IMG/VR virus record: IMGVR_UViG_3300045988_180454
Span: 1,037 to 65,036 of that record
Strand: one strand, 5' to 3'
Length of the DNA stretch: 64,000 nt
Source: a virus
Position 1 is the stretch's first letter, and every line of letters begins with the position of its first letter. The notes below the pieces were generated by a model. It saw nothing but the letters and a program-made list of their open reading frames with translations, was not told the DNA's origin and ran no database searches. The position numbers were made by a program, and so were the translations under genes. Shown one piece after another: positions 11-64,000 of the stretch.

Positions 11-424
11 GGATCAGAGAAGTTTTTTTTGTTTGTATCAGCTGGTGAGGATTTTTTGTTTTCTCTCTTGCTGATGACTCCACTGTAGCGCGCGCTAGCG
101 GGGGAATGCAAGTTCAAATCTATGTGTTCTGTATCACACATCATTTCCCCTGGTCAGAGTAGGTTTTTGTTACTGCAAGTCCGCTACTAGGTTGCACGCA
201 ACCGCCGATTTTTGTGTCGTTTTTTGTGTTTTTGAGGTTTTTGTACATCTACAGTGACGAAAATCGACGCAAAACAGCAGGTCAAAGCACATTTTTGAAA
301 ACCCTTGACACACATACATAACACAAAAACTTGGCAAACATGCAGGTCAGAGTAGGTTTTTAAACGTTTTTATGTGTTTATGTGACGTAAATAGACATAA
401 AACACCAGGTCAGGGGCTATTTTT
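11..424 (+). repeat. six co-oriented copies of a ~19-nt motif (consensus GCAGGTCAGAGTAGGTTTTT: SWGGTSAG core, then a T5+ run at fixed distance)
   Basis: Copies read at 11-30, 42-57, 150-168, 278-296, 343-361 and 406-424. No ORF with a ribosome-binding site lies in this stretch. Confidence 0.8.
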
Positions 425-6076: not shown

Positions 6077-6416
6077 TGGCTTTATTATCAGATAAAATTA
6101 TCCATAAATCCCGTAAAGAAGCGCTTTGCGGTGTCTGTGCCGTGGTAATGCCGAAAGGTACCCACAGCGGGTTACAAAATGGATTGACGAAGATGCTTGT
6201 TGCTACTGCGTGATGCGGATTTGCCTGTCTTGTGATGGACTGGATTATGTAGATCGAATCAATGATGCCTGGTCTTCAGAAGAAGGAGCCCCGCTTGATA
6301 GTGGAGGTTTCATTAAGTCTGCTGTTCGCTTTGATTCAGATGCTATGCAAAACTATCTCCTAGATACAGTTTCAGAAGAAACAGATGATCGTTACCAAGC
6401 CGGCCTACGAAGGTGA
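6076..6416 (+). CDS. paralogue of the preceding zinc-ribbon protein, split over two frames near 6150-6170
   Basis: ATG 6076 overlaps the upstream stop (TAATG) and encodes ...SRKEALCGVCAVVMPKGT. This matches ARKQYVCCMCDCNIEPGE of the neighbour. The rest of the homology (RVTKWIDEDACCYC...) is in the frame of track ORF 6126-6416. Confidence 0.4.
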
Positions 6417-6474
6417 CTTACACTCAACACTGGCAACAACTGGTTAGCCAGTTGGGACAAAAAGGAAGAAGAAA

Positions 6475-6810
6475 ATGAACCAGAAGACAATTGGCTACGC
6501 CTATTTTAGGGCTTTAAAAGCACGATTCCGCAACCGCTACAAGAAGTACAAAAAGCAGCTACAATACGGCAAATGCCACCGTCCAATTTCTCGATCGTAC
6601 ATTGAAGAACCGCTACTTACTTTGGAAGAGTATTTCCCCTTCTTCCCCCGGTTAGAAGGCGATACGAACCCTCCGCAGAAGGATTACGCGGGCTTTGCTG
6701 ACGGCATTGAGAAGATCGGTTTTCCACCCGGCTACAAAGAAGGCGAAGTGGTAGAGCGGATGCGGAAAGCAATGGACAGTTTACCTGCTTTTGAAAACAA
6801 ACCTGAGTAA
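6475..6810 (+). CDS. hypothetical basic protein
   Basis: AAAGGAAGAAG-N4-ATG. ORF of 111 aa. Confidence 0.65.
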   Translation: MNQKTIGYAYFRALKARFRNRYKKYKKQLQYGKCHRPISRSYIEEPLLTLEEYFPFFPRLEGDTNPPQKDYAGFADGIEKIGFPPGYKEGEVVERMRKAMDSLPAFENKPE

Positions 6811-6814
6811 TGCA

Positions 6815-7108
6815 ATGTCTCATTATAACAGCGGCTGGTGTTTACTAAGTACTCTAAAAGAAATTGAGATGATAGAAGATTATTTCGCTCAGTTAAGGGT
6901 TTGTAAGCACCAGAAGAAAGCGATAAAGCTAGCTAAAGATATCTCAAGAATGAATAGCTTTCTTGGACATTGTTATCATTCTCACAATGCCAAGCCTCGG
7001 ATTTGCGCTCACTGTGAGGAATTAGTTCGTAGCTATTCCCAAAACATTGAGTCAAGACTTGCCTGGTGGCATAAAGAACTGGAGTTGAAACCTTATGTCA
7101 GATTATGA
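6815..7108 (+). CDS. hypothetical Cys/His-rich protein
   Basis: First ATG after the upstream stop, in frame with track ORF 6791-7108. Confidence 0.55.
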   Translation: MSHYNSGWCLLSTLKEIEMIEDYFAQLRVCKHQKKAIKLAKDISRMNSFLGHCYHSHNAKPRICAHCEELVRSYSQNIESRLAWWHKELELKPYVRL

Positions 7109-54546: not shown

Positions 54547-55839
54547 TTATTCAGCTAAGCGTTCAACGGATTCAACCCATTGATTTACCAGGTCTTTGAA
54601 ATCGGGTGGGACAAAGCCCTCGCCTTTTACAAACTTCCCTGTTTCTGGGTCGGTTTTCCCACCTTTGAACTTGGTGCGGTTTGATTCGCAAACCCGTTCG
54701 AGTGCTGCTGAAAGATCGTAACCGGTATGGGTTTTCACCGCCAAGCCTAAAAGAGTGAAAAGAACGTCGCCGAAGGCGTCGTAAAGATCGGTGAGCACTT
54801 TTTCTCGGTATTCTTGATCCAACGCAAACTTGGGCTTCGCCATGAGGTTTACCGCTGATTTGAGTTCGTCTACTTCTTCGAGGAAGAAGTTCAGTGCTGG
54901 ACGAAGCAGTGCTTCCCGGTCGCCTTCTGCATTCAACAGGATTTTCATATGGTCTGAAATGCTTGGCGGGATTTGTCCAACCTGCATGTTCCAGTTGCTT
55001 ACTTCGTTGACGAAACCATCAAAAGCCCAGTTTTGTGATTCCTTATAAGTAGTTGGCGCTTTGGGGTCTGTGCTTAAGCCTGCGTCTTCAAGAACCTTAC
55101 CAAAAACCGCACGGTCAAGATTGTAAAGTTCTTCGGCAATAAGTGCGATTACTGACCGGAACTCCGCATCTACACCTGCATCAGAACGCTTCTGAATAAT
55201 TTCTGACCAGGTTCGGAAGTTACCTGTAACCACAATTGATGTCGCGGTAGCATTTGGCAATACACAGCGAGCTGCTTCCGCTGCTTGTTTTTTAGAAGCC
55301 TCCGGGTGATAGCGCATTACCATGTCGAAAAGCTTATTGTACAGGTCTACGCTTTCGTTGGCGAAGCACTCTAGCTTTGCTTCCATTGATGCTTTAGGTG
55401 AAAGCGGAGGATAACTACCGCTATGAGTGAGGGGGAGGTCTTGTAAAGCCGGGGGAAGCACCATCTCTAACCCCTTATCTGGGGAAACAAAACGCTGAGA
55501 CAGTACGCTAAACGACAAGTGGCGGTGGCGCGTAAGCTCTGCCAAGAATGACCGGCTTACACTTTCAAGAAGGAATGTTGCCGAAGCGTGTTCCATGATG
55601 GAGTAGTGGTGTTTTTCATGGATCGTCTTCTCTACGTACTTAGTCGGCGTGTTGGTTTCCTCATTTGGACGATCCCAAGACTGGTAGCAGTTCCGTCCCG
55701 CAAACTCAATAAGACGGGTTGAATCTGGATCACCTGGTTCATGAGGAAGCACGTGTCCAAAATCGTAGTTGAACTCTGGATTTAGCCGGGTGAAGGCAAG
55801 TAATGTTACTTGCGGAGTCTGAGAGATTCGCACATTCAT
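54547..55839 (-). CDS. thyX: flavin-dependent thymidylate synthase fused to a MazG/all-alpha NTP-pyrophosphohydrolase-like domain
   Basis: ThyX signature RHRHLSFSVLSQR in the N-terminal ~270 aa. The C-terminal ~150 aa carry LEEVDELKSAV ... DAFGDVLFTLLGLA ... VCESNRTKF. Confidence 0.75.
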   Translation of the reverse strand: MNVRISQTPQVTLLAFTRLNPEFNYDFGHVLPHEPGDPDSTRLIEFAGRNCYQSWDRPNEETNTPTKYVEKTIHEKHHYSIMEHASATFLLESVSRSFLAELTRHRHLSFSVLSQRFVSPDKGLEMVLPPALQDLPLTHSGSYPPLSPKASMEAKLECFANESVDLYNKLFDMVMRYHPEASKKQAAEAARCVLPNATATSIVVTGNFRTWSEIIQKRSDAGVDAEFRSVIALIAEELYNLDRAVFGKVLEDAGLSTDPKAPTTYKESQNWAFDGFVNEVSNWNMQVGQIPPSISDHMKILLNAEGDREALLRPALNFFLEEVDELKSAVNLMAKPKFALDQEYREKVLTDLYDAFGDVLFTLLGLAVKTHTGYDLSAALERVCESNRTKFKGGKTDPETGKFVKGEGFVPPDFKDLVNQWVESVERLAE

Positions 55840-59957: not shown

Positions 59958-59984
59958 GTATTTTCCTTTCTGTGTCGTGACTCA

Positions 59985-60011
59985 ATTATATATGACAGGG
60001 GAGGGGTTCAA
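59985..60011 (-). promoter_or_regulatory. promoter candidate TTGAAC-N15-TATAAT
   Basis: Minus-strand TATAAT is plus-strand 59985-59990 and TTGAAC is 60006-60011. The spacer is short. Confidence 0.3.
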
Positions 60012-60039
60012 GGTTTTGAGTCAAGATATCTTTGTCACA

Positions 60040-61020
60040 CGTTAAAGCAAAACAAAAACAAAAAAAATTATGCAGAAAAACTTGAGTTAAGTGAGTTTTT
60101 GAGTTAACGGTGTTCAAAACATATCTTGACCTGCATAAATACCTAACTCAAATTCAAATCAAAAGTTGAGTTAGGGTTTTGAGTCAGAAAAAGTTGAGTT
60201 GGAGACGTTTAAACACAAAGAAACTCAAAAATTTACCCAAAAAAGTTGAGTTGAGTTGAGTTTTTGAGTTAAGTCAATGAAACCCACTCTGACCTGCACA
60301 AACCCGTAACTCAACTTTAACTCAAAAACTGAGTTGAGTTGAGTTAGGCGAAAAACTGAGTTGAAATTTAAAGCAAAATAAATCGAAAAATTTGTACAAA
60401 AAAGTTGAGTTACTTGAGTTAATTTGAGTTTACCCTATTTGACCTGCGGAAATGCTGACTCAAATTCCAACTCAAGTTTTGAGTTGAGTTTTGAGTTGAG
60501 GATTGTCCGGGTTTCAGACTTCGGTTGAGCCGCCGGTGAGGCAAGGAAGAGACCGCAACCCACCGATTATGGCGCTGAAACAGGGTCTCAACTCAAATTC
60601 TGACTCAGTTTTCGCAAAAACAGCAAGACTCTGACCTGCATAAATACGTAACTCAAATTCTAACTCAAAAAGTTGAGTTGGCCTTTTCGCTGGTCAGGAT
60701 AGGTTTTTAGGGGCTAACTCAAAAACTCAACTTTTTTGTCGATATTTTATAACTAATAACGCTTTAACGCTTATTAGTTGTGCACAGCTGTATTTTCTCT
60801 ATACGCATTATTTTACAATTTAAATTGAGTTATTGAGTTAGAGTAGTGAAAAGGGTATCTGACCTGGTAAAACAGTAACTCAATTTCAACTCAACTTTTT
60901 ATTTTCCCAGGTCAGAATTTGAGTTGAAACTGAGTTAGCAGTTCAGAGGGTATTTTTGAAACACGAAAAACCGGGATTTCGGGTTTCCAACTCAAAAAGT
61001 TGAGTTAGGCAGAAAAAGAC
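60040..61020. repeat. heptamer field: about 40 copies of TTGAGTT/AACTCAA in five ~50-bp composite units
   Basis: Composite unit: TGACCTG-N8/9-TAACTCAA-N4/5-AACTCAA-N4-TTGAGTT. TGACCTG cores lie at 60127, 60289, 60439, 60631 and 60859. Runs such as GTTGAGTTGAGTTGAGTTTTTGAGTT occur at 60245-60270. Confidence 0.9.
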
Positions 61021-61083
61021 GCCTTGACTAAAAAACCGAAAGCGGCTGGTTCAAGGCGTGTGCTCAAATTTGAGCGGCTGATT

Positions 61084-61608
61084 TTAAGAATATTGGTTGT
61101 ACAGATTCTGCTGTTGCTTCTCCCACTCCTGAGCGAAAGTGCGGTCATTCGTAGCCGCGGCTCGGAGTTGTTCGCTGCGCTGCACCGCGGTGTTCCCTTG
61201 AGCGATAGTCCAGCGGAGCTTGACACGCGCCTCAGGCGTGAGTCCGAATTGTTTAATGCCGTCCATCCAAAGCTTTTGGAATCGTGCTCGGTCGGCGGCC
61301 TTGTACATTGGGTTCAAGGATTCCTGGAGGTCTCCAGCGAGAATCACGAGGGTGTGATAGTCTGCGGCTGTCCATTCGCTCACCATCGGCGAGGTCCAGA
61401 TCTCTTCCCACCAGCGGAGGACTACCGGGGACCATTTCGTCTCCTCGGCACCGATAAGATCGGCGGGAAAACCCACGACTTCGCTAGCAGGCGGAAGCTC
61501 TGGTAAGCTAGCTAGCAGCTCTTCTCGCGGCCTTTGTGCTAGCATGGTGGTAGCGGCCTTGGCACCCTTTTTTGACGGGCCTCCGGGCTTCCTGGGGGGT
61601 CCTGGCAT
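61084..61608 (-). CDS. terminase small subunit-like protein (P27-like)
   Basis: The pattern W..VVLRWWEEIWTSP ... DYHTLVILAGDL ... KQFGLTPEARVKL is typical of actinophage small terminases. The N-terminus is basic. Confidence 0.55.
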   Translation of the reverse strand: MPGPPRKPGGPSKKGAKAATTMLAQRPREELLASLPELPPASEVVGFPADLIGAEETKWSPVVLRWWEEIWTSPMVSEWTAADYHTLVILAGDLQESLNPMYKAADRARFQKLWMDGIKQFGLTPEARVKLRWTIAQGNTAVQRSEQLRAAATNDRTFAQEWEKQQQNLYNQYS

Positions 61609-61770
61609 AGCGATATGGTCCTTTCCTTAGCTGAGCAGGGTCATCAAGGACATTTTACCCCAATCCCTCGCAGAGCGAAATGTGCAGCACGCGCCCGGCT
61701 CGGCCCCAGATAGGGGGAGGGGGTACCCCTGGGTGAGGTAGAACGGGGGTAATTTGTGGGGGTAGTCGCT

Positions 61771-61898
61771 TTGTTTCCCCTGGTGAGTCGCAATATATAT
61801 ACCGCAAATTGGGCATGGGTGGGGGTATATAAGTGGGTTTCTCTGGTTGCATGGGGTTGTCTGACCACCTGTTTTTACCGGAAAAACCCGGTTTTTTG
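61771..61898 (+). ncRNA. candidate small transcription unit (TTGTTT-N17-TATATA promoter to ACCGG-loop-CCGGT-T6 terminator)
   Basis: Promoter-like boxes at 61771-61799. Hairpin plus T6 at 61877-61898. No ORF lies between them. Confidence 0.3.
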
Positions 61899-62039
61899 CT
61901 TGTTTTATCAGTTTCTCTTAAGTCTTGCATGGATTTTGCATGCTATAGGTCAATCTTTTTACGGTCTATAGCATCAACTAAAAGTTTGATTGTAGCAATA
62001 GGTGTGGGTGGTTTTCCCTATCAAGGCCATTTCTTAGGG

Positions 62040-62682
62040 TAGGCTATGCTCACGTACGGGTGCACGCAATCGGTATGGCAATTGAACTATAGGATTGTCC
62101 ATAGGTGCCGATAGGCATACCGCATCAAAGGGATTGCCTATGTGTGCCTATCCACCATATAGGCAAGTGTATATAAAGCCGAATATAATAATTCGCAATC
62201 GTTTATATAGGCCATGCCTCAATATACCCGGCTAGGGGCTATCCGGGTGGTGCCTACCCCCTAGGCATGCCATGCAGCATGCCTAGCAGCCATGTGCTAG
62301 CGCTATGCCATGGCCTGCTGATCTAGGCCACTCAAAAGCGTATGGCCTAGCAGCCTCATAGACGCACGAACTCAAAGCCATATAGCCGATCATACCAGCG
62401 AGATATAAAGCCGCTGTATCGAGCTGCTAGGCTATCTATATCACATATCCCCTGGTGAGTAGATAGTGATATGTGGTGTGGTGCCAGTGGATACCCCTAT
62501 GATAGCAATGGTACTAATAGGCTATATGTGTGGTGTACTATCAGTATGCCATATGGCATATCCCTAGGCATGCCAAAACCCTACCTATAGTAGGTACCTA
62601 TATAGATACCCCTATAGATAGGGTTGGTATATGGATACCCCCTATAGCAGGGGGCATAGAGTATGCCTATACGATAGATAGG
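62040..62682. repeat. non-coding field of CTAG-, ATAGG- and GGCATGCC-type short palindromes and repeats
   Basis: CCCTAGGCATGCC occurs at about 62258 and 62563. GCCTAGCAGCC occurs at about 62281 and 62346. GATACCCC(C)TAT(A/G) occurs at about 62490, 62606 and 62634. ATAGGC/GCCTAT appears many times between 62090 and 62170. Confidence 0.8.
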
Positions 62683-63501: not shown

Positions 63502-63867
63502 TTAGAAGTCACCAAGCTTTTGAGGCAAATTTGTACACGTACGCAAGTCGTGTTTTACCTGCTTAAGGCAGATTTTTTCAAAGCGGGGCATGGTTTCTTT
63601 GTTGGTGTATAGGAAGCGTGGTCCCCCACGATTGATAAGCCGGACCCACGTAAACCGGACGCCACGCGAAGTGTAATGCAAATCGACTTGCAAAATCTTA
63701 GCCATGCTTAAGGGAAGTTCAGCTAGCAGTCTTGCTTTTTTGCCGTTATCGACTGAAAAAGGGTGCCTGACCAGCTGAAATGTGAAGTGGGCTTCTGGGT
63801 CAAGCTTACGCAATTCGTTGCGTAAATGTTTGCATGCGTCGTCGATAGGCTGTTGTGTGATAGGCAT
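63502..63867 (-). CDS. hypothetical protein
   Basis: AAAGGAAAAA-N2-ATG. A CTGGTCAG motif copy (plus-strand 63881-63888) lies 13 nt upstream of the start. Confidence 0.55.
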   Translation of the reverse strand: MPITQQPIDDACKHLRNELRKLDPEAHFTFQLVRHPFSVDNGKKARLLAELPLSMAKILQVDLHYTSRGVRFTWVRLINRGGPRFLYTNKETMPRFEKICLKQVKHDLRTCTNLPQKLGDF

Positions 63868-64000
63868 GATTTTTCCTTTCTGACCAGGTGTTATAGCTGT
63901 TGCCTTACAGATATTCTGCTACTTTTTCGAGGTCCTTATGCCAATTTTCGCCAGACAATTCTTGCATTTTATAAGAATCTCCTTAGAGAAGTAGTGAGTG

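Follow-up and report, generated by a model that had tools for sequence, protein, structure and literature searches.

A 64,000-nucleotide stretch of the virus record IMGVR_UViG_3300045988_180454 (IMG/VR; positions 1,037 to 65,036 of the record, hereafter the window) carries in its two large non-coding fields repeated copies of a short asymmetric element with the core CAGGTCAGAG, and the same element was found in unrelated phages and in actinobacterial chromosomes. Since the copies occur in unrelated phages as well as in chromosomes, lie in either orientation and lack terminator and fixed promoter features, we tentatively read the element as a site that is bound by a conserved host factor, DNA-binding or associated with transcription, and that phages would use to bring this factor to the starts of their transcription arms and to the vicinity of cos. 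We give this reading slightly less than an even chance.

The pattern CWGGTCAGR occurs 14 times in the window, compared with 1.86±1.25 times in 100 shuffled sequences, none of which reached 14. The core followed by a T-run was counted 13 times in the whole window (1.6±1.3 in shuffles) and nine times within the fields alone, where shuffling of the fields themselves gave 0.10±0.33 occurrences (maximum 2 in 500 shuffles). For non-coding versus coding DNA of the window the odds ratio was 6.7-25 (p 5e-6 to 9e-8). The original prediction had drawn attention to the repeats in the two non-coding fields, and the counts and the odds ratio show that they are commoner than in shuffled sequence and concentrated in non-coding DNA; all copies that it listed were recovered at their positions. 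Its description of the left field was correct in part. A SWGGTSAG core had been assigned to six left-field copies, of which five have it and the first (11-20, GGATCAGAGA) is degenerate, and a T5+ run had been placed 6-8 nt after the core, which holds for four of these copies (6 nt) but not for the first two (2 nt).

A logo of 512 non-redundant instances reads G-y-A-W-W-n-s-C-G-CAGGTCAGAG with a weak T-rich patch at +12..+16. Information is confined to positions -9 to +16 and the logo is flat elsewhere; the conserved length is at least 17 nt. The element of about 20 bp is described here as an A/T-rich patch at -7..-4, (C/G)CG-CAGGTCAGAG, a gap of 3-6 nt and a T-rich patch. The scans of IMG/VR and of genomes were seeded with two-copy patterns, which biases the spacing and orientation statistics, and gene calls on the metagenomic loci were crude. 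With these limits, 68% of the instances among the IMG/VR matches listed are intergenic, compared with roughly 22% non-coding DNA, and orientation relative to the next gene was unbiased among these matches (100 co-oriented, 134 convergent). An intrinsic terminator was rejected: 13 copies were folded and none had a stable stem ending at the T-run. Fold z-scores of the copies ranged from -1.6 to +0.9, except for a palindrome of repeated words at 60873-60930, and a terminator scan detected such word palindromes and not the motif. The folding thus agrees with the earlier statement that no hairpin precedes the T-runs and that these are not classical terminators. A Chi-like hotspot was also rejected, as the motif is too long (at least 17 nt versus 5-8) and most end-proximal copies point inward with variable orientation.

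The exact 20-mer GCAGGTCAGAGTAGGTTTTT of the window recurs in L003, an IMG/VR phage of 81 kb that is unrelated and differs in its primase and helicase; nine co-oriented copies lie there in a 2.4-kb non-coding gap, and all oppose the flanking genes. Corynebacterium phage P1201 has seven copies in its first 6.1 kb, against a single match in the remaining 50 kb. Between gp12 and gp13, three copies on the minus strand stand back-to-back with three on the plus strand, and a further copy precedes the small terminase gene at 98 nt from the left end. In Corynebacterium phage C3PO four copies occupy the gap between gp06 and gp07, two on the minus strand upstream of gp06 and two on the plus strand upstream of gp07, and GCAGGTCAGAAC is present in a duplicated segment near the right end. 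The annotated start of gp06 (L001 2235-3710) appears to lie about 170 nt too far upstream, because the alignment to P1201 gp12 starts at residue 52 and an ATG at ~3543 is preceded by a good ribosome-binding site; the two minus copies therefore lie upstream of the gene and not inside it. The back-to-back arrays of C3PO and P1201 face divergent genes 60-210 nt away. Gordonia phage GTE8 has an array of two leftward copies followed by a rightward one between two co-directional genes, and in P1201, C3PO and GTE8, all relatives of the phage of the window, the element is located in AT-rich non-coding regions.

Cluster F mycobacteriophages (Kersh, Pacc40, Fruitloop, Tweety) carry a pair of invariant copies whose distances from the right end are 57 and 92 nt. 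These are the only full copies in the genome, and both are convergent with the last gene, HNH; this pattern was found in 25 genomes and 210 GenBank records. In both subgroups of Cluster L (Snenia, Lumos) the motif lies 61 and 148 nt from the right end, pointing inward in L138 and outward at the same positions in L141 and L174. The last 160 nt of these phages have the terminal sequence ggctgatcgaggagggg… in common while the motif orientation is opposite, which suggests inversion or replacement of a cassette of about 25 bp. An inverted repeat around the core, an idea prompted by the Cluster L inversion, was rejected because complementarity was not above control in 401 instances. Gordonia phage Daredevil has 13 copies upstream of early genes, about half in each orientation, and in Snenia and Daredevil copies are found upstream of leftward early genes, including an ArdA-like gene. 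Many metagenomic IMG/VR contigs have 5-13 copies, and among the matches listed, chance matches included, hundreds of viral contigs contain the motif. The words that flank the cores are phage-specific: AACTCAA and ACACAAAAA in the window, ACTACA in C3PO, GTATTAA in L003, TGATTCA in L173, GTGGAACC in L039 and CATCGTCG in both Daredevil and L110.

Bacterial chromosomes, one genome per species, were scanned with the pattern CTCTGACCTG-N10-40-CAGGTCAGAG. Back-to-back pairs were obtained at no fewer than 120 loci versus about 15 expected, and Actinomycetota accounted for 73 of the 80 records listed; the motif was found in chromosomes of Streptomyces, Arthrobacter, Nocardioides, Actinomyces and Rhodococcus. 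More than 60 of the matches correspond to one orthologous Streptomyces locus (e.g. L239 1863-1895), in which a perfect palindrome CTCTGACCTGCGGAAAcGnTCCGCAGGTCAGAG is followed after 3-4 nt by TGACAACGGTGTTCA and then by a gene for a His-rich CDF transporter. The TGACAACGGTGTTCA stretch matches the published Zur box of zitB (PMC5472717). At high zinc, oligomeric Zur protects the zitB region from -138 to -78, and the sequence feature located there is uncharacterised (PMC5472717). As the Zur-box match puts the motif palindrome into the -138 to -78 region, the palindrome may be the uncharacterised upstream element of zitB activation. In Nocardioides (L281, L293, L354) the palindrome has the Zur-box-like sequence GTAACAACGGTCAGTAAC on both sides. 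A site between kamE and lnt is common to Nocardioides and a metagenome-assembled genome of the Mycobacteriales, and an Arthrobacter site lies near a type I restriction-modification gene.

The chromosomal pairs form perfect 10-13-bp stems after genes, for instance between a galE-like gene and zitB and between kamE and lnt. These stems, together with the T-run after the core, would fit an element that acts as RNA, the transcribed core being a processing, termination or antitermination signal. We consider this very unlikely: single phage copies have no partner arm and fold no better than shuffles, and divergent regions offer no upstream transcript to act on. Rfam gave no hits at the gathering threshold in the window, with only chance-level hits in the fields, and no family at the host loci, where hits were again at chance level.

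The presence of the element in unrelated phages and host chromosomes means that it is not private to the phage of the window, and the epithet phage-specific of the original prediction, contradicted by the same core and flanks in both, has to be dropped. The more general proposal of a role in protein recognition was judged the most plausible role for the motif. An operator for a phage-encoded regulator, like the stoperators of Cluster A phages, had been suggested by analogy; the motif resembles these 13-14-bp sequences in being a short asymmetric repeat in the non-coding DNA of actinophages, and the phage-specific words near the cores, AACTCAA among them, could be operators for phage proteins. 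Stoperators, however, are dispersed over the genome in one orientation with respect to transcription and are specific to a subcluster and its repressor, whereas the motif is clustered in two or three fields, spans phage lineages without sequence co-variation and is also chromosomal. Phages without any regulator in common have the identical core, and no repressor, integrase or helix-turn-helix domain was found in the open reading frames scanned (30 small ones included). The analogy therefore fails, and the motif distribution largely refutes a phage operator, which we regard as hardly tenable.

Protein-family and tblastn searches identified the window as DNA of an actinobacterial siphophage of the Corynebacterium type, akin to the phages C3PO, Zion and Darwin (Zierdtviridae, Ceetrepovirus) and to P1201, with 52% identity in the DnaE-type polymerase and 40% in the capsid protein; a nucleotide search of GenBank phages gave no match to the window or its fields. 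A plus arm (1204-27654) encodes replication proteins (RNR, SNF2 helicase, DnaE and, by Pfam, PrimPol-D5), and a minus arm (27719-59957) carries the lysis, tail, head, terminase, ThyX-MazG and flavodoxin genes. The small terminase is encoded at 61084-61608 on the minus strand. Close relatives in IMG/VR have a small terminase 97% identical and a nucleotide identity of 80-87%, and they show the window to be a circularly permuted view of a genome of ~65.7 kb, of which ~1.7 kb between window end and start is absent. In the relatives (L370 1-1700) this segment contains three further small minus-strand genes, each followed by a hairpin ACCCCC-N3-4-GGGGGT. The left field (1-1203) thus lies where the first minus-strand gene and the plus arm diverge. 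Between the small-terminase gene and the first gene of the long minus arm lies the right field (59958-61083); a terminator-like hairpin with a T-run (61034..61047, minus strand) after the former gene parts it from the motif array. A -10-like TATATAAT (59985..59992, minus strand) lies 25 nt upstream of the first minus-arm gene's ribosome-binding site and 135-960 bp downstream of the array. It is conserved in all relatives and is likely a sigma-A promoter with the motif array upstream.

All six left-field copies are on the plus strand. The first (11..30) combines the degenerate core, which does not fit SWGGTSAG, with a preceding G6 run and a T8 run, and the CAGATCAGAG variant of it is also found in L003 and in the relatives L370 and L364. 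The second (42..57) has CTGGTGAG at 42-49 and consists of CTGGTGAGGA and a T6 run. The third (150..168) reads CTGGTCAGAG-TAGG-TTTTT with the core at 150-159, and the fourth (277..296) reads GCAGGTCAAAG-CACA-TTTTT with the core at 277-287 and a tail similar to the second copy of Cluster F phages (GCAGGTCAGGGCACATTTTG). The fifth (342..361) is the consensus copy formed by the 20-mer shared with L003, with its core GCAGGTCAGAG at 342-352; it is conserved in the relative L098 and has a -35-like TTGGCA 16 nt before TAGGTT, the only such arrangement in the left field. The sixth (406..424) reads CAGGTCAGGG-GCTA-TTTTT with the core at 406-415.

In the right field, five unit copies lie on the minus strand: 60110..60136 (GCAGGTCAAGATATGTTTTG, core at 60127), 60275..60298 (GCAGGTCAGAGTGGGTTTC, core at 60289), 60430..60448 (GCAGGTCAAATAGGG, core at 60439, GCAGGTCAGAGGGGG in relatives), 60612..60640 (GCAGGTCAGAGTCTTGCTGTTTTTG, core at 60631, invariant in relatives) and 60845..60868 (CCAGGTCAGATACCCTTTTC, core at 60859). 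Two plus-strand copies stand back-to-back with the last two of these. The copy at 60689..60708 (GCTGGTCAGGATAGGTTTTT) pairs with the 60631 copy and has TTGGCC 17 nt upstream of TAGGTT; the copy at 60907..60917 (CCAGGTCAGAA) pairs with the 60859 copy and is decayed to CACGTCAGA in L370 and L364. An additional plus-strand copy at 60938..60957 (GCAGTTCAGAGGGTATTTTT), absent from the original prediction, has the core GCAGTTCAGAGG at 60938-60949 and its own T-run. It is degenerate in the window but reads GCAGGTCAGAGGCTATTTTT in relatives, so that its decay is reciprocal with that of the 60908 copy. Apart from decay and repair within this one adjacent pair, all copies are retained in relatives at 80-87% identity. 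Two CCCCTGGTGAGT variants lie further to the right on the plus strand: one at 61777..61788 (gtttccCCTGGTGAGTcg), beside G5 runs and 170 nt upstream of the small-terminase start, and one at 62449..62460, in a word-rich field at 61610-62680 and conserved in L370. The match at 63767 (minus strand) is inside an open reading frame and that at 63880 (minus strand) overlaps a ribosome-binding site; both may be chance matches.

We propose that the binder of these sites would be an architectural or regulatory DNA-binding factor of the host, or an accessory of the host transcription machinery, and that phages place its site, as single copies or as arrays and with either orientation, beside cos and in the AT-rich non-coding regions where their arms start. 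In the window, six copies lie in the divergent region ahead of the plus (replication) arm, and eight copies lie behind the small-terminase terminator, upstream of the likely TATATAAT promoter. The bound factor may modulate early transcription or turn it on or off, and may perhaps also affect DNA architecture at cos or at an origin, while word repeats near the cores (AACTCAA, ACACAAAAA) could supply phage-specific control. No DNA-binding domain was found in the 20 early-arm and 10 field-flanking open reading frames scanned, which we count in favour of a host-encoded binder. A bolder version, possible but less probable, would take CGCAGGTCAGAG with its A/T flanks as the site of an undescribed factor common to the phylum Actinomycetota, IHF-like or a sigma adaptor, which phages of Mycobacterium, Corynebacterium, Gordonia, Streptomyces and others would have co-opted independently for early transcription and for organisation of cos or the origin, and which the host would use for example in the upstream activating region of zitB.

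A functional parallel is offered by the sites of IHF in coliphage lambda (I1 at cos, the H sites of attP, pL) and Mu and in chromosomal RIP/BIME elements. Both IHF sites and the motif combine an asymmetric core with an A/T tract, occur in unrelated phages of one host group at cos, in promoter regions and near origins, are part of palindromic intergenic elements of the host and are used in either orientation. By inspection, the core GGTCAGAG and the T-run that comes 3-6 nt after it do not match the IHF consensus (WATCAANNNNTTR), although A/T patches are present, and Actinobacteria are not known to have IHF homologues. The likeness would be one of function only.

Several observations count against a host factor. 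No actinobacterial regulator is known to have a motif that matches the core; the comparison covered the consensus sequences of IHF, PafBC, MtrA, PhoP and DasR. The obvious architectural candidate, mIHF/sIHF, is described as sequence-independent. Invariant columns among the close relatives amount to 83.8% in the cores and 83.4% in the rest of the field, and extra purifying selection on the cores was not seen in this comparison. Array copies showed no helical phasing and thus give no indication of a wrapped nucleoprotein complex. Because the chromosomal pairs can form strong hairpins and lie at terminator-like positions, their function may differ from that of the single phage copies. Finally, those copies of the window, C3PO and P1201 that have a downstream gene face it at 60-210 nt from the start codon, and a promoter fits such gene-facing copies equally well.

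A self-contained non-canonical early promoter, whose core and flanks would be read by the host RNA polymerase holoenzyme with an alternative sigma factor or with sigma-A and an adaptor, and whose arrays would be tandem early promoters, is for this reason the main rival, supported by the gene-directed layout in the family of the window and by the early-gene context in Snenia and Daredevil; we rate it as possible but rather doubtful. The six left copies of the window point into the plus arm and the five right unit copies into the minus arm, the back-to-back arrays of C3PO and P1201 face their divergent genes, the P1201 copy at 98 and the C3PO copies at 64249 and 66510 precede co-oriented genes, and several AT-rich copies have a TAnnnT-like hexamer after the core (TAGGTT, TATGTT, TACGTT). 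Mycobacteriophage promoters are, moreover, described as poorly defined, and the same is acknowledged for the promoters and early control signals of actinophages (PMC11373665). That copies point along with the flanking genes, as stated earlier for most left-field copies and the five right-field unit copies, holds for the phage family of the window but not for Cluster F, L003, GTE8 or Cluster L. In the first three, copies are convergent or antisense, in Cluster L the orientation is inverted at the same position, and the IMG/VR matches listed show no overall orientation bias. Most copies of the window, C3PO and P1201 are co-oriented with a downstream gene, but the three plus-strand copies of the right field (60690, 60908, 60938) face only the 3' end of the terminase gene, and the canonical TATATAAT is nearer to the first minus-arm gene than the array.

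A second conserved element of a promoter was not found in the 843 instances examined: at no offset did TA...T or TTG occur in more than 8% of them, and a sigma-A promoter in fixed register was accordingly rejected. The idea of a -35 just downstream of the core was also rejected, as positional profiles were flat. Within the window a -35-like hexamer at 16-17 nt accompanies only the copies at 343 and 60690. The '-26 element' of PafBC-dependent (RecA-NDp) promoters, TGTCGGTG-N8-TAnnnT, is, like the motif, a GC-rich asymmetric actinobacterial element of 8-10 bp, and by eye GGTCAGAG matches TGTCRGTG at 6/9 positions; the motif, however, shows no TAnnnT enrichment at +16..+20 (8-nt spacing) and occurs in arrays and both orientations. 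The early host-RNA-polymerase promoters of T7 (A1-A3) and T5 are likewise several co-oriented units at the head of the early region near a genome end, but they are canonical sigma-70 promoters, whereas the motif has no conserved -35/-10 and an inconsistent orientation across phages. SAS/ESAS of Cluster K and the 18-bp motif of Microbacterium Cluster EC are also intergenic repeats of actinophages with unknown or promoter-like roles (PMC11373665, PMC7302621). These are restricted to one cluster and fixed at 14-30 bp from start codons, in contrast to the motif, which is found in many clusters and genera at variable distance. The early promoters of phiC31 were considered as a known equivalent and rejected, since phiC31 lacks the motif.

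The layout of the arrays also raises the question of an origin, in which inverted cores would flank an AT-rich unwinding element at which a host factor or the phage PrimPol-D5 helicase is loaded. Back-to-back arrays of the type [<- <- <-][-> -> ->] occur in P1201, C3PO, GTE8 and the right field of the window, with or without a divergent gene. The fields are the AT-richest DNA of their genomes, with an extreme AT island between or beside the arrays (GC content over 80 nt of 9% in P1201, 24% in C3PO and 23% in the window, where this segment, 60351..60430 in the right field, is the AT-richest of its length and belongs to the lowest 0.03%). L035 has two inverted DnaA-box-like sequences between two copies, and a large DNA primase is encoded in 4/4 Zierdtviridae-type genomes. 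Origins made of iterons and a DNA unwinding element similarly combine an extreme AT island with direct and inverted arrays on its flanks, and a common core with adjoining phage-specific words. We nevertheless regard an origin as unlikely. Iterons are lineage-specific while the motif core is not, Cluster F phages have only two direct copies, both at cos, and no fewer than two distinct fields are present in the window. The window shows no enrichment of DnaA boxes (64 versus 61.8 expected), GC skew merely tracks gene orientation, and the motif is also found in phages with other replication modules and at chromosomal intergenic sites.

The copies near genome ends could instead belong to packaging, the core being bound by the small terminase, HNH or a host bending protein that positions cos cleavage or ends packaging. 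Unrelated clusters have such copies at a nearly constant distance from the right cos or physical end (57-59 nt in Cluster F, 61 in Cluster L, 57 in L012; 27-41 in L188/L110), the copies adjoin the HNH gene and G/C runs, and the left-end copy of P1201 precedes the small terminase gene. In the window, the 61777 variant, 170 nt from the terminase start, has the flank GGGGG…GTTTCC before its core, which is also the flank of the Cluster F copies near cos. An accessory function at cos nevertheless appears decidedly improbable, as most copies in the window, P1201, C3PO and GTE8 lie 1-6 kb from any end, and arrays of 6-13 copies and chromosomal pairs are left unexplained. In the region 61690-61830 of the window, five G5 runs are found together with gggtgggggtatataa; they lie between the start of the small terminase (61608) and the variants at 61777(+) and 61861(-), and by analogy this stretch is probably the neighbourhood of cos. 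C/G runs also adjoin motif copies in Cluster F, Cluster L, L044 and C3PO.

In the literature no published description of the motif was found; the string was met only in primers, including a phiJoe primer with CGTTCCCGCAGGTCAGAGC, and the search for conserved actinophage motifs otherwise returned only unrelated cluster-specific ones. Mycobacteriophages of Clusters F and L, corynephages, Gordonia phages and actinobacterial chromosomes share a single element of 17-20 bp, and one oligonucleotide (e.g. GTTTCCGCAGGTCAGAGGC / GTTTCCGCAGGTCAGAGGCTT) could serve as a cheap handle for fishing out its binder in model hosts (M. smegmatis, C. glutamicum, Streptomyces). Should a host factor bind the element, this would account for the access of very different phages to one and the same host machinery and may explain the uncharacterised upstream element of the Streptomyces zitB promoter. 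The element would then also be a portable control part, of use in the genetics of mycobacteria and corynebacteria and in engineered therapeutic phages. If the element is an accessory site of cos, it would bear on packaging in the large group of cos phages with HNH and terminase.

The fields contain further repeated words. Dozens of AACTCAA/TTGAGTT words surround every motif copy at 59960-61060, many of them as palindromes AACTCAA-N3-5-TTGAGTT, and TTGAGT/ACTCAA words are similar to half-sites of the HspR HAIR box. The left field has CTAG-rich palindromic words (GCTAGC, CCTAGG) at 440-640 and 840-1000 and words of the CCTTAGTTAGG type, of which C3PO has long arrays at its right end (L002 33700-34030, 36690-37280); TTAGG/CCTAA words are similar to halves of the DtxR/IdeR box (~15/19 positions to TTAGGTTAGCCTAACCTAA). 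A GC-rich island of about 90 nt at 60500-60590 lies downstream of the 60631 copy in the AT-rich right field. A small structured RNA at this position was rejected (fold z = -1.26, no covariation in three sequences), and a tRNA scan of the window and fields found none. ThyX and a MazG-like pyrophosphohydrolase are fused in one open reading frame of 430 aa (54547-55839), while C3PO has separate genes. In P1201 (L004) a (CAAGACAG)n array is present at 1440-1550, and the stretch from the motif array to gp17 contains a 109-bp unit repeated in tandem in seven copies (6310-7090). These units are annotated as three 4.8-kDa open reading frames (gp14-16) and are probably non-coding repeats rather than genes.

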